Source: Flavobacteriales bacterium (GTDB lineage: Bacteria > Bacteroidota > Bacteroidia > NS11-12g > UBA955). Taken from it: a DNA stretch of 64,000 nt. Below, one piece after another: positions 33,167 to 59,699 of this stretch; position 1 is the stretch's first letter; each line of letters opens with the position of its first letter. The notes under the pieces are model-generated. The model did not search any database and had not been told where the DNA came from. It worked only from the letters and a program-made list of their open reading frames with translations. The position numbers were made by a program, and so were the translations under genes. The DNA is taken from the NCBI GenBank assembly GCA_947487055.1, contig CANKVN010000003.1:5222-69221 (forward strand), given 5' to 3'.

Positions 33167-33634
33167 ATGAAATTATCACAAATAAAAATGCATTTAGGGG
33201 AAGTAAATGAAATCAATTTTATTTTACCCAATGGCGACGTTGTTCCAACGCATTTCCATATTACGGAAGTTGGGGTAATTACCAAGGATTTTATAGATTG
33301 TGGAGGAAAGCAAAGGCATGAAAAAGTGGCTAACTTCCAGTTGTGGAGTGCTAATGACTTAGACCACCATTTAAAACCACAAAAATTGAGGGACATTATT
33401 GACTTGTCTGAAAGGGTTCTGGGAATGGAAGATTTAGAAATTGAAGTAGAATATCAGTCAGAAACCATTGGCAAATATGCCTTGGATTTTAATGGCCGTG
33501 TTTTTTTACTAATGGCCAAACAAACAGCATGTCTTGCAGAGGACGCTTGTGGAATTTCGCCTGAAAAACAGAAGGTTGAGTTATCTGAAATTATGGCCTC
33601 TAACACCTGCAAACCAGGTGGTGGTTGCTGTTAA
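33167..33634 (+). CDS. DUF6428 family protein with a Cys-rich tail
   Basis: ILPNGDVVPTHFHITEVG resembles DUF6428, a family usually seen in ars loci. The C-terminus reads CKPGGGCC. Confidence 0.55.
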   Translation: MKLSQIKMHLGEVNEINFILPNGDVVPTHFHITEVGVITKDFIDCGGKQRHEKVANFQLWSANDLDHHLKPQKLRDIIDLSERVLGMEDLEIEVEYQSETIGKYALDFNGRVFLLMAKQTACLAEDACGISPEKQKVELSEIMASNTCKPGGGCC

Positions 33635-48259: not shown

Positions 48260-49678
48260 ATGGTCTTTGCCAGTTTGGTTTTCTTACTTTTCTTCTTTCC
48301 ATTGTCTTTACTGTTCAATTGGCTGCATGGAAACATCAATTACAAGAATATTGTACTGGTCCTGTTTTCTTTAATTTTCTATGCCTGGGGCGAACCTGTT
48401 TGGGTGTTCTTGTTGTTGTTTACTACGCTTGTAGATTTTACCATGGCCCGACTGATTGAAAAAAATGAAAATCACTGGCGGGCAAAAATGTATTTGGGGA
48501 TTTCAGTGTTTTTCAGCCTGGGTATACTAGTGGTATTCAAATATTCAGGTTTTTTATGCGGCATCTTTACGGATATAACCGGATATTCTGTAAAGGCGCC
48601 TAATCTGGCCCTTCCAATAGGCATATCCTTCTATACGTTTCAATCATTAAGTTATATATTGGATGTATATCGCGGCCAGGTTTCGGCACAGAAAAAATAC
48701 CTAAATTATTTACTGTTTATTTCGCTGTTTCACCAGCTTGTTGCCGGCCCTATTGTGCGCTATTCTGATATTGCGCAAGAAATAGAAAAAAGAAGTGCAA
48801 CCTGGGCTGATATTTCCTACGGCGTAAATAGGTTTGCCTGGGGCCTGTTTAAAAAAGTATTTTTTGCCAATACTGCCGGAACACTTGTTGCCAAATACCT
48901 GGAAGGAGATTTGGGAGCCTTGAGTATTTCGGAAGCAATTATGGGTATTTTTCTATTTGCCATACAGCTATACTATGACTTCAGCGGGTATTCAGACATG
49001 GCCATTGGGATGGGAAGAATGCTTGGATTTCATTATCTGGAGAATTTTAACTTTCCATATATAGCAAAATCAATAAAAGAATTTTGGACCCGCTGGCATA
49101 TCAGTTTGGGTTCTTTTTTACGTGATTATTTGTTCACGCCCATAGCATTTAACAAAAGGCATTGGGGTAAATGGGGTGTGATGTATGCATTGTTAATCAC
49201 CTTTGCTTTGAGTGGCCTTTGGCATGGTGCAAGTTGGAATTTTATTTTTTGGGGCTTGTATTTTGCTGTTTTAATCATACTTGAAGAGTGGTTTTTAAAT
49301 CGAATATTTAAATTCATGGGATCCTGGTTATCTCATGTGTATCTTATTTTGGCTGTTTTCTTTAGCTATCCGCTTTTTTATTTTACTGATTTTCAAAAAT
49401 TGAAACAGTATTTTTTTATTTTGTTTTCAGGGTCTCATCCGTGGCAAAAAACAGGATTTACCAGTGACCTTTTAGAGCATATTTATTGGATGATTGCAGC
49501 CATTATATTCCTTACGCCATTGGGTAAAAAAATGGGTGTTTATTTAATCCAAAAATTATCCAATAAGCCTGCTATCATTGGTCTTGCCAACACAATAGCA
49601 TCCATTACTTTCCTATTAATCGCAATTGCATTGCTGGTAGCAAAATCCTTTAACCCGTTTTTATATTTTAGATTTTAA
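48260..49678 (+). CDS. MBOAT family O-acyltransferase (AlgI/PatA/DltB-like)
   Basis: Multi-TM protein with the blocks PIGISFYTFQSLSYILDVYRG and FWTRWHISLGSFLRDYLF. It also contains the conserved His block GLWHGASWNFIFWG. Confidence 0.9.
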   Translation: MVFASLVFLLFFFPLSLLFNWLHGNINYKNIVLVLFSLIFYAWGEPVWVFLLLFTTLVDFTMARLIEKNENHWRAKMYLGISVFFSLGILVVFKYSGFLCGIFTDITGYSVKAPNLALPIGISFYTFQSLSYILDVYRGQVSAQKKYLNYLLFISLFHQLVAGPIVRYSDIAQEIEKRSATWADISYGVNRFAWGLFKKVFFANTAGTLVAKYLEGDLGALSISEAIMGIFLFAIQLYYDFSGYSDMAIGMGRMLGFHYLENFNFPYIAKSIKEFWTRWHISLGSFLRDYLFTPIAFNKRHWGKWGVMYALLITFALSGLWHGASWNFIFWGLYFAVLIILEEWFLNRIFKFMGSWLSHVYLILAVFFSYPLFYFTDFQKLKQYFFILFSGSHPWQKTGFTSDLLEHIYWMIAAIIFLTPLGKKMGVYLIQKLSNKPAIIGLANTIASITFLLIAIALLVAKSFNPFLYFRF

Positions 49679-49679
49679 T

Positions 49680-50966
49680 ATGCGGAAAAATTGGCACCAT
49701 ATATTAAACACGCTATTCCCAATTGGTTTATTGGCGTTTCTCGCTGTTCTTTTTTCTATGATGGGTAAAAAGGAGATTTCTACAAGTGAAAAAAGAAAAC
49801 TGACAGCTTTTCCAGCTTTAAATTGGCAAACCTGGACTGATGGGTCATTTACCAGAACACTGGAAGACTATATTGCTGATCACTTTGCATACAGAGAGGA
49901 TATTATTGCGGGTACCGATGGTATTAAAAATGCGTTTGGAATTGCCCGCAAGAGCAATGAGGGGAAGTTCATAGCGATAAAAAAGAAAAAAGCATCAATT
50001 AAAACCAAAAAAACAACACTGGTAATTGATTCAAATTACACCGTTGCGCTAGACACGGGGGCAGAGCTGTTGCTTACCAATGGTGTGTTTATTTACGACA
50101 GTTGTTCCTATCAGTTTTTTGGTGGAAACAGCTATTCCTCTGCGCGATATGCCAATATGTATAATGCGGTGGTAGAGCACCTTCCTAAGCACATCAAATA
50201 TTATGCTGTGCTGGTGCCCTCGTCTACGGAATTTAACCTTCCTCCCGCCACCTACCGCTATAAAGCAAATTCAGAAACAAAAGGGATCCATTATATTTAT
50301 TCCGGGTTGAATGAAAAAATCGGGAAGGCCGATGTTTATAACCATATGAAGGCCCATAGAAAAGAATATTTATTTTTTAAAACCGATCATCACTGGACTG
50401 CGCGCGGAGCTTACTATGCATACGAAGCTTTCTGCGAAATAGCTGATATCTCTCCGCTTACCCTCGGTCAGATGTCTTCGAAATTTGTTGGAGGTCCGTT
50501 TTTGGGCTCCCTTTACCAACTCACCCACGATCCAACCTTAAAAGCCAATCCGGACAGGCTGGAGATTTTTGATATCCCATTTAACGGAGCCAAGGCTTAT
50601 TATAAGTTTGATGCAAACCAAACGCAGTGGACTCCTACAAAAATAGTGTATAAAAATGGCGAGTTTGGCATTGGATATGGGGTTTTTCTTGGCCTTGATT
50701 ATCCGGTTATGCGGATTGACGGGCCCCAAAAGAATGGAAGAAGGTTGTTTATATTAAAGGAATCTTATGCCAACGCTTTTGTTCCTTTTCTTGTTCCGCA
50801 TTTTGAGCAAATATTTGTGGCAGATGTACGTTATTTCCCTTATAAAATCGATAAATTTATTGAAGAATATAATATTAATGAATTCCTAATGATGAACCAA
50901 TTGGTAATGGCTAACAATCCTTATACCCCCCAAAAAGTGCTGAATATGCTGAAGGGTAAGCAATGA
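49680..50966 (+). CDS. DHHW family protein (AlgJ/AlgX-like SGNH-type O-acetyltransferase)
   Basis: N-terminal TM anchor and the eponymous motif FFKTDHHWTARGAYYAY. It starts 2 nt after the MBOAT stop. Confidence 0.8.
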   Translation: MRKNWHHILNTLFPIGLLAFLAVLFSMMGKKEISTSEKRKLTAFPALNWQTWTDGSFTRTLEDYIADHFAYREDIIAGTDGIKNAFGIARKSNEGKFIAIKKKKASIKTKKTTLVIDSNYTVALDTGAELLLTNGVFIYDSCSYQFFGGNSYSSARYANMYNAVVEHLPKHIKYYAVLVPSSTEFNLPPATYRYKANSETKGIHYIYSGLNEKIGKADVYNHMKAHRKEYLFFKTDHHWTARGAYYAYEAFCEIADISPLTLGQMSSKFVGGPFLGSLYQLTHDPTLKANPDRLEIFDIPFNGAKAYYKFDANQTQWTPTKIVYKNGEFGIGYGVFLGLDYPVMRIDGPQKNGRRLFILKESYANAFVPFLVPHFEQIFVADVRYFPYKIDKFIEEYNINEFLMMNQLVMANNPYTPQKVLNMLKGKQ

Positions 50967-52558
50967 TGCGTGGGTTAATATTTATAATGGCATTGTTAAT
51001 CTTGGGCAATGTAAATGGCCAAAACAGGGATTCTGTTCAGGAATTTGTACTGAATCCAATTGTGGTGGCTGCAGAAAATAATTTTATTGAAAATGATGCA
51101 GCATTAAAGCCATTTTTTCTCATGTTGGATTCCTTAAAAAACAAGAATAAGAAAAAGTTAACCATTGTTCATATCGGAGATTCCCACCTTCAGGGCGATT
51201 ATTTAGCACGCACCATCCGATACCGCTTGCAACACGAGTTCGGGGAAGCCGGGCGTGGTATGGTTTTTCCGTACAGTCTGCTAAATATGTATGGACCGGT
51301 GGATTATAAATGTGTTAGCAATGTTGCCTGGCAGCATTCGCGTATGTTTCCAAGGGAGCGCAATGGTCCGGTTGGTTTGGTTGGATATGCTGTAATGAAT
51401 CAAAGCCCAAACATGAAGCTAACTATTCAGTTGCAGCGGCCAAATCCGCTTTATTATGGAGCATTAACCAATTTTAATGATTATCCCACCAATCAGTTCA
51501 ACAAGCTCAGTATTTTATATTCCAACGATAGCTTAGGGCTTCCATTAAATGTTTCAGGAATACGGGATGACAATAGCCTGGGTCGCCAAATAGAATTGCC
51601 TCAGTATAATTCCAATCAAGGGGGCTTCCAGCTGGGTGAAGTTAATTTGGAATCAACATTTACTTCCCTGCAGATTCAGGCAGATACCCACCGGCATTTC
51701 ACCAAGCCTGTACGTTTGTATGGGCTTAGCTTTGAAAACACCAATGCACATGGAATATTATACCATATGGCCGGGGTGGGTGCATGTCAATTGTCCGATT
51801 TCATGGGAACAACCTATTTTTTTAAACATTTGGTTTCCCTAAAACCAGATTTGGTTATCATTTCTTTAGGGGCTAATGAGTCCTGTACACCTGGTTTTGA
51901 CACGGTAGGTTATTCCAGTAAATTAAAACAGGTAATAGCGGATTTGCGCAATTCCTTACCTGGCGTTCAGGTATTAATTACTACACCTCCAGATATATTG
52001 TTTAGGCGCACCAGACCACCTTCTATGGATGCAATATGCAGAACCCTTGAGCGCACAGCCTTTGCTGCGAACACAGGATTTTGGAATCTCAATAAAAATA
52101 TGGGAGGCGCCTGGTCAAATGCATATTGGTTTCAAAATAAACTTGCCGGACCCGACAGGATTCATTTCGCGCCCCGGGGTTATGATTTTCTTGGCTTGTT
52201 GTTAACGGAAGCCCTCTATAACAGCTATTACCGCTATGCTTTAACCCCTATAGATACCCAATCGGTAAGAAACAGTACCCTGGCTTACCGCAAATTATTT
52301 ACAGCGCTTCAGGTTAATAAAATTAAATCCTCAAACCTTCCACAGCAGACAGTAACTTCTGTGCGAAACAATCCGCAAATACCGGTAAACCACCGTCAAA
52401 TCAGCCATCATGGAGCCAAATACCATAGGGTGGTGAAAGGCGAATCGGTATATTCGATATCAAGAAAATACGGGGTAAACCATAAAGAGGTTTTGAGGCT
52501 GAATGGATTCACCGCAAAAACAATTATCAGACCTGGTCAGACAATCCGTATTCGTTAA
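50963..52558 (+). CDS. secreted SGNH/GDSL hydrolase-fold protein with a C-terminal LysM domain
   Basis: It has a signal peptide. SGNH block I is IVHIGDSHLQGDY, block III is SLGANES and block V is DRIHF. The C-terminal LysM (aa 487-530) is YHRVVKGESVYSISRKYGVNHKEVLRLNGFTAKTIIRPGQTIRI. The start overlaps the upstream stop (ATGA). Confidence 0.8.
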   Translation: MMRGLIFIMALLILGNVNGQNRDSVQEFVLNPIVVAAENNFIENDAALKPFFLMLDSLKNKNKKKLTIVHIGDSHLQGDYLARTIRYRLQHEFGEAGRGMVFPYSLLNMYGPVDYKCVSNVAWQHSRMFPRERNGPVGLVGYAVMNQSPNMKLTIQLQRPNPLYYGALTNFNDYPTNQFNKLSILYSNDSLGLPLNVSGIRDDNSLGRQIELPQYNSNQGGFQLGEVNLESTFTSLQIQADTHRHFTKPVRLYGLSFENTNAHGILYHMAGVGACQLSDFMGTTYFFKHLVSLKPDLVIISLGANESCTPGFDTVGYSSKLKQVIADLRNSLPGVQVLITTPPDILFRRTRPPSMDAICRTLERTAFAANTGFWNLNKNMGGAWSNAYWFQNKLAGPDRIHFAPRGYDFLGLLLTEALYNSYYRYALTPIDTQSVRNSTLAYRKLFTALQVNKIKSSNLPQQTVTSVRNNPQIPVNHRQISHHGAKYHRVVKGESVYSISRKYGVNHKEVLRLNGFTAKTIIRPGQTIRIR

Positions 52559-52581: not shown

Positions 52582-55461
52582 CTACCTCACCTCTACCTCA
52601 TCTACAAAAATAAACGTTTCGCCACCAGCTCCGGGATGCCACTCGGGAAGGGTGCCGTATTGCGCAGCCCGCATCATAATGTAGCGCGCTTTAACCGGTT
52701 TCATGTAGGTGTGGATGGTTTGTTTCTGCGAACCCAGGCTGTCTGCAGGAATCCTGTTCATCGTGCCTGTAGCATTGGCCCATTGTTTTCCGTCCAGCGA
52801 AAACGAATAACTCACACTTCTGGGATACACAATCCAGCTGCGGGTGTCCTGCAAAAATCCGGCATGCAGGGAATGGATGATTTGGGTATCACCCAGATCA
52901 ATAATGGCTTCGTAGGCTTGACCTTGTAGGCCTTGCCAGTTGCCCTTTTGCCATTCGGAATCGCCACGCACGCCATCGCTCAGTGCCTGGGCTCCACCGC
53001 CCGTGTATTGCGGGTGCAGGGGGTTTAAAACGGTTATTTTCCATTTATTTGGCCGCTTAAAGAAACAGGCTTTTGCAATGGCTCCACCGGGATGGAAGGC
53101 TTCCAGGCAAACACTCTCTTTCAAAATCAGGGTTGTATCGGCTGCTTTGTAGGGGTCTTTTCCATAAACCATCATTCGGTTTTTTTCTTTGCCGTCCTGG
53201 TTCAGCCGGATGGTAAAACCCTTTCCGAAACAGGCATTGATATTTACCGCCATGCTGTCGTCAAAGGCAATATCCTTGAACGTGAATAAGGGAGCTGCAA
53301 TGCTGCTTTCCCGCTCAGCGGTAAAAAATCCGTATTTATCGCCACATCCCCATTCGGTAGGCTTTTCAGCCATGGTAAATATTAGTTTTCCGCCACCGGT
53401 CAATGCTTTGTGGGATATGAAATTATCCATCACCGCTTTGCCGTTTAGCATTACCGACTGGATATAATTTCCCTTGCCTTTTTTCAAAATCTGTAATCGC
53501 TTGCCACTTTCAAAGTTTAAAACAGTTTTTTGAAACAACGGATACCCAATGCTGTAGCGTTCATCACCGGGACAAACAGGATAAAAACCCATGCTGCTGA
53601 GCACGTACCAGGCACTCATTTGTCCGCAGTCTTCGTTGCCACTGAGGCCATCGGGTTGGTTGTGATACATGGTTTCCAGTATTTGCTTCACCTTTTCCTG
53701 GGTTTTGTGCGGTTTTCCGGCGGTGTTGTATAAATAGGCAATGTGGTGGCTGGGTTCGTTGCCATGGGCATACTGCCCAATTAAACCGGTAATATCGGCT
53801 TGTTCGCGGCCGATGGTTTTGCTGTTGGTGGTAAACAGGCTGTCCAGCATGGATTCCAGTGTGTGCGGCCCATGGCTTATCATGGTTCCCAGCCAGGTTT
53901 GCAAATCGTGGGGAACCGAAAAGGTATATTGCCAGCTGTTGGCTTCGGTGTAATGGTTGTTTACTTCCCTGGGCTCAAAAGAACTAAGCCAGCGCCCGTA
54001 GCTCCGGGGCCGCATGTGGCCGGTAGTGGGGTCAAAAACATTGTTCCATGATCCACTGCGGCGGTAAAACATCTTGGCAAGGCTGTCTTTCCCCAACATC
54101 TCTGCCATGCGGGCTATGCACCAGTCGTCGTAGGCATATTCCAGGGTTTTGCTCACGGATTCGCTTTCGTTCTCCATGCTCAGAAAACCATATTTCATGT
54201 AATCATCCAGCCCAAAAACGGGCTTCTCTGCTGTTTTTACAGCAGCTTCAAGCAGGGCTGCGGCGCTATCCGGCATGATGCCTTTGGACATGGCATCGGC
54301 AATTACGGAAACCGCGTGGTAGCCAATCATGCAGTTGGTTTCGTTGGAGGCGAGTTCCCACACCGGCAGCCTTCCGCTTTCGCGATACATGCGTAAGAAG
54401 GTTTTCATGAAATCGCGGGTGCGCTGTTGCTCTATGAGTGTGTAAAGCGGATGGGTGGCCCTGTAGGTGTCCCACAGCGAAAAAACCGAATAATGATCGC
54501 CCTTTCCGTCGTGTTGTTCTTTGTCCATTCCCCGGTAACTGCCGCTCGCATCGCTTACCAGGTTGGGTACAATCATGGTGTGGTACAGGGCAGTGTAGAA
54601 AATACTTTCTTGTTCGGGGGTGCCTTTTACCACAACCTTACCCAGTTGCTTTTCCCATTCGGTTTCGGTTTGTTTTTTCAACGTTTCAAATGCCTCGGGT
54701 CCTGCGTTGTTAAAGCTATTGGTGGAATTTAACCACCCGGAAAATGAAATACCTGTGGCAATGTAAATATCGGCGGTGCCGGCAGGGAAATAAATGGCAA
54801 CAGCGCGCTGTTGTTTGCCCTTTTGCTTAAGGGTGACCACCGAATCAGCCGCAGCGGAAAACCACAAATCAAAAAAGAACTGCTGGTCTTCTGCCCAGGC
54901 TTTGCTAAAGCGGTGCCCGTAGGCATGCATCGTTTGCTTGTGTTCAGAAAGTGGTGTATTCAGTGCGTCGAAGTGTCCGTCGGTTACAAAATCGCGGTGC
55001 TCCAGATCCAGCACAACGATGGCTTTGCTGCCGGCCGGAAAGCGATAGTGGTGGATGGCACTGCGTTTGCCTGCTGTAACTTCTGCAAAAATTCCATTGT
55101 TAAACCTTACGGCATAGTAGCCGGGATGTGCTTTTTCACTGCTGTGGCTGAAGGAAAGGGGTTTCAATCCGGGCCTTATGAGCAAATCGCCGTAATCCGA
55201 AACACCGGTGCCGCTGAGGTGTGTGTGGGAAAAGCCATAGCAAATGCTGTCATCATAATGGTATCCGCCGCAGCCATCCCAACCATCCAGGCGGGTATCG
55301 GGGCTCAGCTGCACCATGCCGAAAGGGGCGGTAGCGCCGGGATAGGTGTGGCCGTGCCCGCCGGTGCCGATAAAGGGATTTACTTTATGAATGAGCGGCT
55401 GGGCCTGCAGTGGGGCAAACATCAGCATAATCAAACCGGAGAGGAGTTTCATGTATTGCAA
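52582..55461 (-). CDS. GH92 family alpha-mannosidase with a C-terminal discoidin (F5/8 type C)-like domain
   Basis: VNPFIGTGGHGHTYPGATAPFGMVQLSPDT, GFSHTHLSGTG and SGNEDCGQMSAWYV are GH92 signatures. An extra C-terminal domain of about 150 aa ends FIFVDEVEV. Confidence 0.9.
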   Translation of the reverse strand: MQYMKLLSGLIMLMFAPLQAQPLIHKVNPFIGTGGHGHTYPGATAPFGMVQLSPDTRLDGWDGCGGYHYDDSICYGFSHTHLSGTGVSDYGDLLIRPGLKPLSFSHSSEKAHPGYYAVRFNNGIFAEVTAGKRSAIHHYRFPAGSKAIVVLDLEHRDFVTDGHFDALNTPLSEHKQTMHAYGHRFSKAWAEDQQFFFDLWFSAAADSVVTLKQKGKQQRAVAIYFPAGTADIYIATGISFSGWLNSTNSFNNAGPEAFETLKKQTETEWEKQLGKVVVKGTPEQESIFYTALYHTMIVPNLVSDASGSYRGMDKEQHDGKGDHYSVFSLWDTYRATHPLYTLIEQQRTRDFMKTFLRMYRESGRLPVWELASNETNCMIGYHAVSVIADAMSKGIMPDSAAALLEAAVKTAEKPVFGLDDYMKYGFLSMENESESVSKTLEYAYDDWCIARMAEMLGKDSLAKMFYRRSGSWNNVFDPTTGHMRPRSYGRWLSSFEPREVNNHYTEANSWQYTFSVPHDLQTWLGTMISHGPHTLESMLDSLFTTNSKTIGREQADITGLIGQYAHGNEPSHHIAYLYNTAGKPHKTQEKVKQILETMYHNQPDGLSGNEDCGQMSAWYVLSSMGFYPVCPGDERYSIGYPLFQKTVLNFESGKRLQILKKGKGNYIQSVMLNGKAVMDNFISHKALTGGGKLIFTMAEKPTEWGCGDKYGFFTAERESSIAAPLFTFKDIAFDDSMAVNINACFGKGFTIRLNQDGKEKNRMMVYGKDPYKAADTTLILKESVCLEAFHPGGAIAKACFFKRPNKWKITVLNPLHPQYTGGGAQALSDGVRGDSEWQKGNWQGLQGQAYEAIIDLGDTQIIHSLHAGFLQDTRSWIVYPRSVSYSFSLDGKQWANATGTMNRIPADSLGSQKQTIHTYMKPVKARYIMMRAAQYGTLPEWHPGAGGETFIFVDEVEVR

Positions 55462-55677
55462 AGATGGGAATGAAAGGGTAAAATGTGATTAAAATATCGA
55501 TCTTGTTGGTTTAGCCATACTTTCACCGTTGGGATTTTTGGATAGTTTCTAAGGTCAAATTAAAGCTAAAGAATAAAAATACTGACCCCCAAAAACCATT
55601 ATTATAAAATAAACAAGAAACCCCAAACGTTAATATGGTAATAATTACAGCCTATATAAATATAAAATAATTATAAC

Positions 55678-55685
55678 TATATTTG
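55678..55685 (+). promoter_or_regulatory. Bacteroidota -7 promoter box (TAnnTTTG) for the low-GC operon
   Basis: Exact TATATTTG, 4 nt upstream of the ATG at 55690. It sits at the end of a 228-nt very AT-rich intergenic region. Confidence 0.45.
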
Positions 55686-55689
55686 ACGA

Positions 55690-56601
55690 ATGATGCTTAT
55701 TAAAAACAAAAAGTACAGGGAGATATTTGCGAGTCAGCCAGAAAACAAATCTGATGTAAGCGCACAGATTACAGCTATATCAAGAAAGGAAGACAAGGAT
55801 TTTCTTTGTCATTATCCCTACATTGGAATGGGAAACCCGGATGCGAAAATATTGTTTGTTGGCAGCGAAAAAGGATTTAACCCATCCACATCAGCAACAA
55901 TAGATTTACATGAGCGAAAATTAAATTTTATACATTGGAATAATATAGTGAATAATTATAATCATTTAAAGGATTATTTTCATCCCATATTAAAGTTGCG
56001 TAATGGCTTGGAGGGTTTTAATCCGTTTTCTCCCCTTACATTAAATGAAACAGCCGAAAAGGTCTATGGCAAGGGAAATCACACCTATAAAAAAATGGAG
56101 AAAATTATTCAGGCACAATTTCTTAATTATGCTACAGCTGCAGAAGCAATCAACCTATTTGAAATTACCCCCGGTTCGTTTCATAAATCACTCTTTAAAC
56201 ATTGTTTTGTAACAGAAATTTCCGATTTGCCAAAAAGCAACCAAAGTCAAGGGAGTGAATTTAATTTTAAAAAATTCAAAAAATCATGCCGCTATAGTCA
56301 TATGCAGACCGGTAGAATAGGAGATTTTTACCGCAGTTTTAAAACCGTTATTATATATGCGGGTAGCAGATATGCAGGTGTACACAATTCCATTCAAAGA
56401 GCTGAAATAATAGCATTATTTAATCCGTTAATAGATATGAAAAAGGATTTCAGGCGAGGTTATGTTTCTGATATTTACGAAACGAAAAAAGGAGGTGCAA
56501 GGATTATTGTATGTCCTCACTTAACCAGCTATGGTATTTTTAGGAATGACTATATACTTTCACATGAGTTTTCGGTAATGGATCTTGGGCAATGTGTATA
56601 G
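55690..56601 (+). CDS. uncharacterised protein with divergent uracil-DNA-glycosylase-superfamily motifs (island gene 1)
   Basis: A 303-codon ORF in AT-rich DNA. GMGNPDAKILFVGSEKG (aa 46-62) parallels family-4 UDG motif A (GEGNPxAxxMFVGEAPG). HCFVTEISDLP parallels the (V)YITN(V)VKCRP strand. KTVIIYAGSRYAG parallels PKxIVxLGxxA. RIIVCPHLTSYG (His277) parallels the xxPTYHPS motif B. All four occur in the canonical order. Confidence 0.6.
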   Translation: MMLIKNKKYREIFASQPENKSDVSAQITAISRKEDKDFLCHYPYIGMGNPDAKILFVGSEKGFNPSTSATIDLHERKLNFIHWNNIVNNYNHLKDYFHPILKLRNGLEGFNPFSPLTLNETAEKVYGKGNHTYKKMEKIIQAQFLNYATAAEAINLFEITPGSFHKSLFKHCFVTEISDLPKSNQSQGSEFNFKKFKKSCRYSHMQTGRIGDFYRSFKTVIIYAGSRYAGVHNSIQRAEIIALFNPLIDMKKDFRRGYVSDIYETKKGGARIIVCPHLTSYGIFRNDYILSHEFSVMDLGQCV

Positions 56602-56608
56602 TTTGGTT

Positions 56609-57409
56609 ATGAAATCACTATATAATAAATTAAACACATATAAGTATATTTGTTGGTACCCCTCGGCCGGTAATGATTTTATGGCATACAGACATTGGTA
56701 TTCAGGAAGGGGTAATTTCATAAAGCCGGATTGTTTTGTTTACACGGACCTATTATACAGGAATATTTATAACCTGAATCAATATGAGAATGAGGGCCTT
56801 ATTATAGATTTACCTATTGATATTTTTAAGGAGTATCCTTCTGATGAAACAGGATATTCTGCGCTATTAAATGAGGATGAAGACACATGGGTAGAAAAAT
56901 ACATTACCGACAATATTGACCTTATATGCAAAGAACCCGATCGAATAGAATTATTAAAAATGGGATTTTATGATGAGGAATTAATAAAAGAATTTCATAA
57001 CTATATAGTTCATAATATAGATTATTTAGTGAGTAATGAGCAGATAAAAACACAATATAAAAATGGGGACATCCCTATTAATATGCTATATCCTTATTTA
57101 AATAAAAACAATGGTAATTACCGTCTTTTTAAGACGGATAAAGCTGATATCTTTATTATTTCTGCAAAAAATCAGCACTTTGCAGCGTATTGCTTAGTCA
57201 ATAATATTGCCATTAATGGAATCATGATAAACCGGCCTATGGATGAATATATCCTTGATGATGATTTTCGTAATGAAGTATTACCAGGTTTGGGGGTAAA
57301 AGAATGTATCGTTAATACAAATTATTTTCCTGGTTATTCTGATTTTGAGGAGTTTTCCTGGTATGAAGACGACAAAATTACAGATCAAGGCAAGTTATTG
57401 TTCTTGTAA
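56609..57409 (+). CDS. hypothetical protein (island gene 2)
   Basis: A 266-aa ORF that starts 7 nt after gene 1. No family recognised. The N-terminal YICWYPSAGNDF...DCFVYTD is faintly Rossmann-like (strand, Gly-rich loop, strand ending in Asp). Confidence 0.55.
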   Translation: MKSLYNKLNTYKYICWYPSAGNDFMAYRHWYSGRGNFIKPDCFVYTDLLYRNIYNLNQYENEGLIIDLPIDIFKEYPSDETGYSALLNEDEDTWVEKYITDNIDLICKEPDRIELLKMGFYDEELIKEFHNYIVHNIDYLVSNEQIKTQYKNGDIPINMLYPYLNKNNGNYRLFKTDKADIFIISAKNQHFAAYCLVNNIAINGIMINRPMDEYILDDDFRNEVLPGLGVKECIVNTNYFPGYSDFEEFSWYEDDKITDQGKLLFL

Positions 57410-57485
57410 ATAATGTTCTTGAATCGTTTTTGATTTATCTTCACAGTGTAGTTACATATAAATTAGTTATAAATTCAATCATAAC

Positions 57486-58391
57486 ATGTCTTATAGTTTT
57501 TCCCAATATCTAAACGCACTTAGAACCAATGAAAATGAAATTCCACTAGTAGATTTAAAAACTGATATCTTCGAAAGCCGGAACGAGGCAGAAAAGGATG
57601 CATTTTTAAAAGCCTTGTGTGGTTATATACGATTAAATCTGATGGGGCCGGAAGAAATACCTGGTTTTTTATTAAAAGACAGGGACGTATTGATTGCCCT
57701 CGGATATGAGGTATGGTCAAAAAAGGATGAGCAAATTGATGCGATAAAAGAACATATCAGGGCATCAGAATTTACTTCTGATTGGTCTTTTATCGAAGCA
57801 CTATTTGACGCTGATGACGGATCTCTGGCAATTTCTGTTGCTGATGAATCGGTGCAGGAATTACCTGAATTTTGGATAGAGGGTTTTAAAAAATGGTATA
57901 ATCAACCACGTGAATATTTTCTAGATTCAAACGATATAGAAAGTATTTATTCTCCACTACCGGATAAATTAAAAAAAGATTTAAATTTTAACAAGCAGCT
58001 GGTTTCCAAAATGCCTGAATTTTTTAGTGCGCTCGACGAATCTTTAAGGGCGAATGAAGCAATTTTAGACATTGCACATGAACAATATTTTTATTTGTTG
58101 TTAAATCGGCCCCAACTATATACTACCTTACCGTCTGAGCTAAAAAGTGACCCTATTTTGTGTGCCGGTGTGTTGGAAAATGATGGAATGATGCTGGTGG
58201 TAATGCCAGAATCCTGCCGGTCCAATGCTGAACTGGCCTATATTGCCATAAAACAAACCCCCAAAGCCATGGAGTGCATACATGATAATTTAACTTATGA
58301 TGTAGCGTTTATCAAACGAACCCTTGATGAATGTCCAGATGCACTAGCCTATTGTATTCCACGTATTAAATATTTATACAACAACGGCTAA
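57486..58391 (+). CDS. hypothetical protein with DUF4116-like repeats (island gene 3)
   Basis: A 301-aa ORF. The C-terminal half has repeated units of the form LP.ELK.D..........ENDGMML..MPE..RSN.ELAYIAIKQTPKAM..I...L..D..FI...L...PDALAY, resembling DUF4116 repeats. Confidence 0.55.
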   Translation: MSYSFSQYLNALRTNENEIPLVDLKTDIFESRNEAEKDAFLKALCGYIRLNLMGPEEIPGFLLKDRDVLIALGYEVWSKKDEQIDAIKEHIRASEFTSDWSFIEALFDADDGSLAISVADESVQELPEFWIEGFKKWYNQPREYFLDSNDIESIYSPLPDKLKKDLNFNKQLVSKMPEFFSALDESLRANEAILDIAHEQYFYLLLNRPQLYTTLPSELKSDPILCAGVLENDGMMLVVMPESCRSNAELAYIAIKQTPKAMECIHDNLTYDVAFIKRTLDECPDALAYCIPRIKYLYNNG

Positions 58392-58424
58392 AATATTTGG
58401 TAACCCTTTTCCGTTAAGGTTTTA

Positions 58425-59051
58425 ATGGATATTAACTTATTTGGTAAATCACCGCAAAATCCTGTAAAAACAAAAGGTATTGAAGAATCAATATTGTATT
58501 TGAATAGCCTATTAACTGAGGACTTAAGGCCTATATTATATCATAGAATACGCTCTGGTATTCGGAAAGATTCAAAACCTATAGACTGTTATGAAGTGAT
58601 GAAAAACGGAGAATTAATAGATTATATTTTCATAGATACCTATGCCTCAGAAAATTCTGTACAAGTTCCCGATGGATACATTTTTTATACCGGCAACAGG
58701 AGATCGATGAACATTAAAGGAATTGAAGTCACCAGTAGTATTGGGGTTAATTATCGAGTGAAAGCATTTCCGGAAGCTTTGCTGGAAAACCAAGAGGAAA
58801 AGCCCTTTTTAAGTCCTCAAAGTGAGGCCTTGCTGTCACTGGTTGTTCTGCGGCAGAGGGAGGATAAAACGGAGTATATGAATCAGATGTACGAAGTGGT
58901 CACCGGGGTAATGCGCGTAGGCCTTGTCCAGCATAAACCTAATGTAGCACAAAGTGCTATAAAGGCATTAATTCAGTATTTTCAGCAGAATGAAGAGTAT
59001 GAAAAATGTGCATCATTGCAAAAATTATTAATGGATATTAATGAGGTCTAA
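58425..59051 (+). CDS. hypothetical protein (island gene 4)
   Basis: A 208-aa ORF that starts 33 nt after gene 3. No family recognised. The C-terminal third is helical. Its stop lies 9 nt from the stop of the convergent ydeI-like gene. Confidence 0.55.
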   Translation: MDINLFGKSPQNPVKTKGIEESILYLNSLLTEDLRPILYHRIRSGIRKDSKPIDCYEVMKNGELIDYIFIDTYASENSVQVPDGYIFYTGNRRSMNIKGIEVTSSIGVNYRVKAFPEALLENQEEKPFLSPQSEALLSLVVLRQREDKTEYMNQMYEVVTGVMRVGLVQHKPNVAQSAIKALIQYFQQNEEYEKCASLQKLLMDINEV

Positions 59052-59060
59052 AAAATGTTA

Positions 59061-59699
59061 TCAATCCTGCATGCCTTTGCCCTGCAAGATCTTCTCCCTG
59101 TATTTAGAAATGCGCTCTAACCGTGTTTTGGGCTGTTTTGCGGCACCGAAAAACAAAATATAACCCCTACGCCTCCCAGGGGTGAGTTTGTGGAATGCAG
59201 CGGCTAAATCGGGGTCGTTGTTTAGCACATTGGTGAGCTCTTCCGGCATGACCTGCTCCTGCGGTGGCTTGAATGAAACTTTTTGTCCTGCCTCTTCTAT
59301 TCCTACAGCCTCCATTAAGTAAGCGTTGATATGTAAGCGCTGATCATTGACCTGCCCGGGGCTTGTAAACCTCAAGTAACGCATCGCCTGGCTGTTTTCA
59401 CCGGGTTTTTGGAGGAGTTTTTCAGGGTCCGTCATCAATGCCCCTTTGAAGAAACTGAGGGTGGCACAATGCTTCAGCGCACCCAGCAAAACCACATTGT
59501 TAGCACCATGCATGTAACAAGCCACTCCCCATTTTCGGGTTTCGGTGAGGCCGCTCTGCAACAGTATTTGTCTTAATAATGCCAGTTCTTCTTTCCAGGT
59601 ATTCACCTTGCAGGCTGGTGTTGCACCAAGTGCGCAACGGCCACAACCATCCACAAAGAAGACATCTACGTCAGGGTTTTGGGATGATGGGCTCTTCAT
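59061..59699 (-). CDS. YdeI/OmpD-associated (DUF1801-type) family protein
   Basis: The N-terminal Cys cluster is FFVDGCGRCALGATPACKV. The C-terminus is LTPGRRRGYILFFGAAKQPKTRLERISKYREKI. Both are typical of YdeI-like proteins. Confidence 0.7.
   Translation of the reverse strand: MKSPSSQNPDVDVFFVDGCGRCALGATPACKVNTWKEELALLRQILLQSGLTETRKWGVACYMHGANNVVLLGALKHCATLSFFKGALMTDPEKLLQKPGENSQAMRYLRFTSPGQVNDQRLHINAYLMEAVGIEEAGQKVSFKPPQEQVMPEELTNVLNNDPDLAAAFHKLTPGRRRGYILFFGAAKQPKTRLERISKYREKILQGKGMQD

Follow-up and report, generated by a model that had tools for sequence, protein, structure and literature searches.

Defence by base excision has been recognized only in 2024-2026, with the Brig1, Brig2, Brig3, and Dag families. 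Brig1, the first defence glycosylase, is an alpha-glucosyl-5-hydroxymethylcytosine DNA glycosylase that defends against T-even phages; it was recognized by structure alone (best match in the PDB, 4ZBY), has a glutamate (E147) where uracil-DNA glycosylases (UDGs) have an asparagine (N82 in the S. tokodaii UDG), is encoded in a small operon with an ADP-ribosyl glycohydrolase as partner, and has 42 reported homologues, mainly in Actinobacteria (PMC11078745). Brig2, a divergent UDG-fold protein that was also found only by structure, is located in recently acquired DNA rich in A/T and works as a lone gene within integron cassettes, and it has reported homologues in Bacteroidota (bioRxiv 10.1101/2025.10.29.685425). 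Brig3 is co-encoded with a glucosyl hydrolase, BapA, which broadens its substrate range (bioRxiv 10.64898/2026.02.25.707755). In all known cases, base-excision defence is the work of one gene or a pair of genes, mostly from Proteobacteria, Actinobacteria, or soil DNA. Here, we describe a block at positions 55462-59060 of a 64,000-nt stretch of a Flavobacteriales contig (CANKVN010000003.1; hereafter, the window), which is very likely a strain-variable, horizontally exchanged island with a four-gene operon, g1 to g4, led by a UDG-fold protein.

Some strains of this freshwater Bacteroidota species carry the block at a fixed place in the chromosome and another does not, which makes it a true presence/absence polymorphism. 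A metagenome scan with orthologues of ydeI, the gene to the right of the block, recovered a conspecific contig (L030; ∼96% nucleotide identity) without it. The encoded proteins are 98.5% (TonB receptor), 97.6% (ydeI), and 94% (N terminus of the GH92 glycoside hydrolase that flanks the block on the left) identical to those of the window, and the ydeI and GH92 genes are neighbors with a spacing of ∼111 nt. By blastn, L030 matches the window in two pieces, at 96.4% identity over 61575-59063 and at 89.8% over 55495-55114, and the island proper is therefore window positions 55496-59062, or 3,567 bp, in place of which L030 has ∼79 nt; homology stops exactly at the ydeI stop codon. Exact copies of the island with the same flanks are present on six metagenome contigs.

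The spacer of L030 contains a perfect 22+22-nt palindrome (CCGCCACCATAGCCGCGGGTTT/AAACCCGCGGCTATGGTGGCGG; L030:2531-2574) at the position of the island junction (55495/59063), and no copy is present in the window even when three mismatches are allowed. It may be a terminator or a repetitive extragenic palindromic (REP)-like element that the island displaced.

We found no target-site duplication, integrase or recombinase gene, or adjoining tRNA gene at the island, and no flanking direct or inverted repeats above chance-sized matches. As an integrative island it has site polymorphism and atypical composition without a mobility gene, att site, or repeat, and the simplest account of its gain and loss would be homologous recombination through the flanks. 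It is very improbable that the island is cargo left behind by a prophage, satellite, or integrative element that has since decayed. Foreign composition would suit such an origin, and a search of phage and plasmid collections and IMG/VR with g1, g2, and g3 returned a single g1-like gene, remote at 25% identity, on the edge of an integrative element that encodes two tyrosine integrases together with a primase-helicase and an excisionase (L051:1-7539; IMG/VR UViG_2871817902_000001). However, neither the island nor the DNA beside it contains an integrase gene, a tRNA gene, an att-like repeat, or a phage gene; g1 is missing from 50,697 phage and 72,556 plasmid records, IMG/VR contains no relative of g2, and all four genes are under purifying selection (see below).

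Base composition sets the block apart sharply. Sliding GC content falls from 0.50-0.55 outside to 0.29-0.39 inside, with 0.338 for 55462-59060 as a whole (0.34 versus ∼0.50 in the flanks), and GC at third codon positions (GC3) is 0.29-0.35 in g1 to g4, ∼4 standard deviations (SD) below the 0.502 ± 0.049 of the 44 other open reading frames (ORFs) of the window. The coding density is 97%, with four ORFs on the + strand: g1 (55690-56601; 303 aa), g2 (56609-57409; 266 aa from an ATG that the family alignment favors over an upstream TTG at 56585, which would give 274 aa), g3 (57486-58391; 301 aa), and g4 (58425-59051; 208 aa), separated by 7, 76, and 33 nt. The longest run without a stop codon spans 309 codons, compared with a mean of 91 and a maximum of 163 in 1,000 shuffled versions of the block.

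These values agree with a first-pass annotation that had been made from the letters of the sequence. The four close ORFs and their gaps were reproduced, its five hand counts of G+C per 60 nt (21, 13, 28, 40, and 35) are exact, and both the sharp drop in GC and the claim that ORFs of this length are not expected by chance stand. Its descriptions of the flanks as ordinary chromosomal genes, and of the block as a horizontally acquired cargo module, also hold; for the latter, the empty site in L030, the low GC3, and divergence decoupled from that of the flanks all concur.

Two sibling species, one represented by a 583-kb JGI contig (L012) and the other by a Lake Mendota metagenome-assembled genome (MAG) labeled 'Bacteroidia bacterium' (L020), have the same arrangement of GH92, g1-g2-g3-g4, and ydeI, and their island proteins are 76-91% identical in amino acid sequence to those of the window. 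The ratio of nonsynonymous to synonymous divergence (dN/dS) against these siblings is 0.14-0.28 for all four genes, and purifying selection acts on each of them. Synonymous divergence (dS) from L020 and L012 is 0.15-0.80 for the island and at least 1.4 or saturated for the flanks, although AT-biased codon usage may partly account for the low island values. Divergence is also uneven within the island: the L020 allele at L020:10917-12699 differs from window positions 56609-58391 (g2 and g3) by a dS of 0.15-0.31, with 86-91% amino acid identity, whereas g1 and g4 have a dS of 0.66-0.75 and 79-80% identity. That g2 and g3 are so much closer to L020 than g1 and g4 are points to mosaic recombination within the island.

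A fourth lineage (L055) retains the order g1-g2-g3-g4 beside genes for a TonB receptor (70% identity to that of the window) and KatG (91%); ydeI is missing. Its island proteins are 52, 40, 45, and 55% identical to g1, g2, g3, and g4, respectively, and with flanks at 70-91% and island proteins at 40-55%, the history of the island is decoupled from that of the chromosome. Low GC is retained in every version of the island. The same order thus recurs in L012, L020, and L055, and the proposal in the first-pass annotation that the four genes form one transcription unit is supported by the tight spacing, by the lack of + strand terminator-like sites within the block, and by the order held down to 40-55% identity.

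An alternative is that these are independent accessory cassettes, immunity-like or niche-specific orphans from a Bacteroidota gene pool, that are co-transcribed by accident of insertion. Distant loci do mix the same families in other orders and subsets among many orphans, and there is no match to known systems. Moreover, g1 occurs alone in L014, and L033 has, in a low-GC patch near ydeI, a homologue of g3 with none of the other three genes; the four genes are therefore not obligately linked, which counts against a single four-gene system as much as it favors separate cassettes. On the other side, the order and tight spacing persist at 40-55% identity in L055, and the products are proteins of 208-303 aa with no predicted signal peptides or transmembrane or hydrophobic segments, so that all four appear cytoplasmic. 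Both g1 and g2 have enzyme-like invariant polar residues, there is no nearby toxin, Rhs, type VI secretion system, or recombinase gene, and no Pfam immunity family is represented. We consider independent cassettes unlikely. As between a defence operon and an accessory or immunity array, the two readings that the first-pass annotation had offered, the balance leans to defence, which is favored by the gene order, the cytoplasmic products, the basic, enzyme-like g1 protein, and the genes for WYL-domain regulators, AAA ATPases, and toxin-antitoxin (TA) proteins that accompany distant homologues of g1.

The patch with g3 alone was seen in two contigs of a more distant relative (L033:9880-11584 and L031:3910-5614; ydeI 68% identical). 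The g3 homologue (45% identical; GC, 0.40, compared with 0.47-0.52 around it) lies 1.3 kb from ydeI, and the next ORF belongs to f7, a further orphan family associated with such islands. The ydeI neighborhood may be a recurrent landing site.

The first gene of the operon encodes a basic protein (isoelectric point [pI], 9.3) that the first-pass annotation had assigned to the UDG fold, and structural modeling concurs. The AlphaFold2 model, built from a 24-sequence alignment, has a predicted local distance difference test score (pLDDT) of 87.2 and a predicted template-modeling score (pTM) of 0.90, and in a Foldseek search of the PDB, ranks 1 to 33 are all members of the UDG superfamily (UDG, UdgX, and thymine-DNA glycosylase [TDG]). 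The best match is the S. tokodaii family-4 UDG (4zby; probability 0.99; E, 2.4e-3), and others include UdgX, the UDGs of T. maritima and T. thermophilus, and human TDG; in BFVD, a library of viral structures, the top matches include annotated UDG (COG1573) and UDG-like domains. As modeled, g1 is a divergent member of the UDG structural superfamily, with a three-layer alpha/beta/alpha fold and a four-stranded parallel core sheet. It has no match in Pfam, NCBIfam, PHROG, or PADLOC.

The four predicted core strands (residues 54-58, 172-176, 219-222, and 271-274) follow in the order seen in UDGs, and the most conserved positions of the family lie on or near them. Residues 44-61 (YIGMGNPDAKILFVGSEK; 55819-55872, + strand) form the most conserved block, composed of a GxNP-type loop, the strand at 54-58, and then G-S-E-K; Y44, G46, G48, P50, L55, V57, G58, and E60 are invariant, and N49, D51, and K61 nearly so. 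Within it, GMGNPD (46-51) and GSEK (58-61) are two candidate equivalents of UDG motif A. The second core strand, CFVTE (residues 172-176; 56203-56217, + strand), ends in T175 and an acidic residue, with position 176 being E or D in 24 of 24 sequences; in the register suggested by the model, it would take the place of the base-contacting asparagine of family-4 UDGs and of E147 in Brig1. The last core strand and its continuation (RIIVCPHLTS, residues 271-280; 56500-56529, + strand) bring a C-x-[HQ]277-h-x-S motif to the presumptive place of UDG motif B. The family is rare, with 24 clusters at 90% identity among 5.8 billion, and members in 5 of 185,579 species genomes, all of them Bacteroidota MAGs.

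The g2 protein is acidic (pI, 4.5) and, judged by its invariant residues (C15, W16, Y17, N36, D47, and N188, with P18, S19, G21, W30, G35, P40, F43, and E232 near-invariant), looks like an enzyme. Its signature CWYPSAGxDF...W..GN..P..FxYTD (residues 15-47; 56651-56749, + strand), taken from the family alignment, may correspond to a nucleotide-binding strand-loop motif. The first-pass annotation had called both g2 and g4 orphans. This is so for g4, which has only 3 clusters among 5.8 billion, and not for g2, which belongs to a family of 38 representatives (E ≤ 1e-3 among 1.84 billion; two clusters in a word-indexed search) with a distant relationship to DUF7663 (PF24699). The g2 score against that profile is 17.7 bits, against a gathering threshold of 27, and 18 of 29 family members match the same N-terminal region of the profile below threshold (best E, 2.6e-5), which points to a distant relative of DUF7663 and not a member. 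Searches of PDB sequences, whether with single sequences or with the g1, g2, and F2 profiles, returned nothing relevant, and the AlphaFold2 model of g2, made from three near-identical sequences, was unusable (pLDDT, 34.5) and was not taken to a fold search.

The DUF4116-like repeats noted earlier in g3 are real: this acidic protein (pI, 4.5) scores above threshold against PF13475 (E, 1.4e-9; 37.8 bits versus a cutoff of 24.9) in two stretches, which places C-terminal helical repeats of the DUF4116 family in it, the best-scoring at residues 230-269 (58173-58292, + strand). Its homologues come 3' of g1 in L017 and L055; in L033, one stands by itself near ydeI.

The g4 protein has two parts. Its N-terminal ∼110 residues are seen only in the four-gene operons, and its C-terminal ∼95 residues (∼113-208, core 137-205; 58761-59048, + strand) form a helical domain, F2, with the signature hF...E-E-Y-E-K-C-A and an invariant C-terminal E-x-Y-E-x-C. 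F2 is fused in L055 and is a stand-alone ORF of 83-122 aa in the g1 loci L017, L021, L024, L025, L027, and L029; it has no match in Pfam (E ≤ 1) or the PDB. Its C terminus (EEYEKCA) bears some likeness to the UVR motif, which Pfam does not support at E ≤ 1. In IMG/VR, the motif at the end of F2, E[EA]YE[KSR]C[AHS]x[LI] (g4 residues 190-198; window 58992-59018), occurs in more than 600 stretches, with 13 weak relatives (L056-L068), and is a short, widespread helical motif. The only PADLOC match of the four proteins, that of g4 to the model PDC-M18A (E, 0.0044), was set aside as chance, as two homologues of g4, P0047 and P0048, did not share it.

The surroundings of distant g1 homologues were sampled at 15 loci, and all of their ORFs were clustered into families. 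F2 is present in 8 of the 15, a WYL-domain regulator in 7, a 551-587-aa AAA ATPase (PF00004) in 5, g2 in 4, and g3 in 3 (a fourth g3 locus, L033, is without g1); at least ten more orphan families recur, always on one strand and in varying order. The WYL proteins match PADLOC WYL models, and in L025 the regulator lies directly 5' of g1. The islands also encode PemK and PIN toxins, NADAR, a Cas4-like DUF2779 protein, a DprA-like protein, and CAP, WG-repeat, YkuD, and M15-like proteins. In the AAA proteins, the similarity to IetA and TRIP13 models is confined to the AAA module, and an assignment to Ietis (IetAS) was rejected for this reason and because there is no protease partner; likewise, an extracellular contractile injection system (eCIS) or a prophage was rejected for the distant arrays, which have no matches to structural genes.

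Six of these loci (L017, L021, L025, L027, L029, and L052; ∼10-12 kb around the g1 homologue) are recurrent same-strand arrays of a WYL regulator, a small F2 protein, the UDG-fold protein, shared orphans, the 551-587-aa AAA ATPase, and further orphans, with L021 and L027 syntenic across ∼12 genes. No recognized defence or mobility gene was found in the WYL-F2-g1 arrays, and WYL-F2-g1-AAA arrays are an undescribed type of island of freshwater Bacteroidota. In L053, nuoI and nuoH are separated by ∼8 kb of orphan genes (L053:2909-10623), among them a PIN-toxin pair and a homologue of g1, an island that splits the NADH dehydrogenase (nuo) gene cluster. A family of 195-198-aa proteins (L017:11939-12526, L022:3830-4426, and L024:417-1013) matches PHROG 768, a DprA-like recombination mediator (E, 4.7e-15); in L017 it comes 3' of the DUF4116 gene, in two Chryseobacterium MAGs it is close to g1, and it is another nucleic-acid-related member of the g1-associated gene pool.

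Two further explanations turn on this company. In one, the genes form a DNA-repair or damage-tolerance module, in which g1 removes a damaged or misincorporated host base and its partners assist. The fold of g1 and the DprA-like (phrog_768) gene in the L017 array are consistent with this, as are the WYL regulators beside g1 homologues (directly upstream in L025), since damage-responsive regulators of the WYL type include PafBC and DriD. But a conspecific strain lacks the block, the g1 family is extremely rare (24 clusters in 5.8 billion; 5 of 185,579 species), the composition is foreign, and in L055 the island proteins have diverged fast compared with the flanks; none of this is typical of housekeeping repair, and we regard such a module as improbable. 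In the other, g1 is a DNA-damaging glycosylase toxin restrained by acidic g2, g3, or F2, in a toxin-antidote or abortive-infection addiction module that stabilizes the island. The charges are suggestive (g1 with a pI of 9.3, and both g2 and g3 with 4.5), 8 of the 15 loci with g1 or a homologue of it also have F2, and the same islands contain PemK and PIN TA genes. Against this, F2 is mostly not beside g1 in distant loci (3-8 kb away in L017, L021, and L024), g1 is solo in L014, and we retrieved no precedent; an addiction module, too, has little likelihood.

The functional interpretation that we hold, although tentatively and with somewhat less than even confidence, is that of a Brig-like DNA-glycosylase defence operon with a base-excision mechanism, formed by a new family. 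In this scheme, g1 would flip out a non-canonical (phage-type, modified) base of invading DNA and excise it, and the resulting abasic sites would block replication or be cut by host apurinic/apyrimidinic (AP) endonucleases. The enzyme-like, DUF7663-related g2 could then be an accessory, specificity, or regulatory partner, for which BapA, in widening the range of Brig3, is a precedent; g3 could be a DUF4116 helical-repeat scaffold with a role of this kind, and g4 a further such partner and the carrier of an F2 domain that travels with g1 homologues. Glycosylase activity, modified-base specificity, a defence role, and any physical or functional interaction among the four proteins are inferred, and the scheme draws on several lines: for g1, its UDG fold, its positive charge, and a conservation pattern like that of enzymes; for the island, its foreign composition, gain/loss polymorphism, and fast, host-decoupled evolution; the company that g1 homologues keep with WYL regulators and TA genes; and the precedents for UDG-fold defence proteins encoded in acquired, A/T-rich DNA, some of which have an accessory enzyme in the operon.

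Several results weigh against this interpretation. The structural similarity of g1 to UDGs is only moderate, with Foldseek TM-scores of 0.33-0.37 per query and 0.48-0.56 per target and E values of ∼1e-3; g1 does not match the Pfam UDG family PF03167 at E ≤ 1, and neither phmmer nor the g1 family profile finds a UDG sequence in the PDB. The motif equivalences proposed above rest on the order of secondary-structure elements and not on superposition, and the UDG fold serves ordinary repair too. There is no meaningful match of g1 to g4 in PADLOC-DB 2.0, NCBIfam, or PHROGs; no classical defence system lies beside the island within the 64-kb window. When WYL, AAA, and 14 other families of the distant islands were sought in the window and its siblings, none was found. 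Lastly, aligning the g1 family profile with the published Brig1 sequence by hhalign gave a probability of 0.04 and an E of 0.9; with no profile relationship to Brig1, g1 is therefore a separate family.

A related but more doubtful reading is that of an undescribed conflict system specific to Bacteroidota, made up of a new UDG-fold glycosylase family together with a DUF7663-like enzyme, a DUF4116 protein, and F2, within a wider network of co-travelling orphans. This network (WYL, AAA, F2, and at least ten others) would assemble variously at different sites without a recognizable mobility gene. If so, g1 would recognize a base modification not yet known as a target of a defence enzyme, and its partners would define a multi-component form of glycosylase-based immunity.

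Other features of the window provide context for the island. An AT-rich leader (55496-55689, + strand), the island-specific part of a 228-nt intergenic region 5' of g1, has no Rfam match. Near its end, where the first-pass annotation had reported it 4 nt before the first ATG, is TATATTTG (55678-55685, + strand), which fits the Bacteroidota -7 consensus TAnnTTTG; the ATG is at 55690, and a second ATG of g1 follows at 55693. The same box lies shortly 5' of the g1 start codon in both siblings, L020 and L012. It is a candidate promoter -7 element, in which case the g1 transcript would be leaderless or almost so. The motif is not enriched in the window (57 seen, 64.5 expected) and occurs just 5' of several other gene starts, as a Bacteroidota -7 element would. 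The GH92 gene on the left (52582-55452, - strand) has a host-like GC of 0.51; on the right, ydeI, encoding a YdeI/OmdA plus DUF1801 protein (59061-59699, - strand), is convergent with g4 at a distance of 9 nt, and genes for the TonB-dependent receptor and then KatG lie beyond it. No tRNA genes were found in the window, nor any Rfam families beyond chance.

A three-gene cluster (MBOAT, DHHW, and GDSL-lipase plus LysM) at 48260-52558 has a GC of 0.37-0.42 and a GC3 of 0.38-0.41, compared with a norm of 0.50; in the sibling L012 it does not adjoin GH92, and it probably represents a second module that is variable and acquired, of the O-acyltransferase type. The only other ORF of the window with island-like composition encodes 155 aa at 33167-33634 (GC3, 0.335).

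What sets this locus apart is a sequence family that is invisible to UDG models, its restriction to freshwater Bacteroidota, and a four-gene operon that is conserved yet comes and goes among strains. If the Brig-like interpretation is correct, the phylogenetic and architectural range of defence glycosylases is wider than described, and there are functional handles on three domains, DUF4116, the DUF7663-like domain, and F2. The mix-and-match network of orphans around g1 homologues is a candidate list of new Bacteroidota immunity genes. Should the defence interpretation fail, the locus is still a clean and precisely bounded case of gain and loss of an island without mobility genes.

The defence glycosylases are among the systems already described that come closest to g1. 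Like Brig1, it has a UDG fold with the S. tokodaii family-4 UDG as best structural match, escapes the standard UDG sequence models, is encoded in a small operon, and is rare (24 clusters, against 42 homologues of Brig1); an acidic residue would also replace the UDG asparagine in both (E147 in Brig1 and E/D176 in g1, if the proposed register holds). Unlike Brig1, it is ∼40 residues longer, with helical insertions, is restricted to Bacteroidota, and has DUF7663-like, DUF4116, and F2 partners. With Brig2, compared by description only, it shares a divergent UDG fold in A/T-rich acquired DNA, whereas the island is a conserved four-gene operon with no integron. Brig3-BapA, also compared by description only, offers in BapA a model for the proposed role of g2. 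The core fold and strand order are those of family-4 UDGs, UdgX, and TDG/MUG, with conserved residues at the presumptive positions of motif A, strand 2, and motif B, but g1 lacks the canonical GEAPG, GQDPYH, and HPS motifs, and is strain-variable with a foreign composition.

Two other kinds of locus bear comparison. Some defence islands are regulated by WYL proteins of the BrxR/CapW type, and distant g1 homologues likewise lie in same-strand arrays headed by WYL proteins; however, the island of the window has neither WYL nor AAA genes, and the arrays contain no recognized defence system. Bacteroidales also accumulate arrays of orphan immunity genes (AID systems), which resemble the island in being low-GC, same-strand, strain-variable sets of unrecognizable genes. 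The island differs in having no recombinase, cognate toxin, or known immunity family, as Pfam returns only DUF4116 and a weak DUF7663 match and the neighbors are GH92, YdeI, TonB, and KatG, and its proteins are larger and enzyme-like. UDG-fold defence glycosylases have been known since 2024, and what would be new here is the sequence family, its phylum-specific context, the multi-gene architecture, and the three uncharacterized partner domains.

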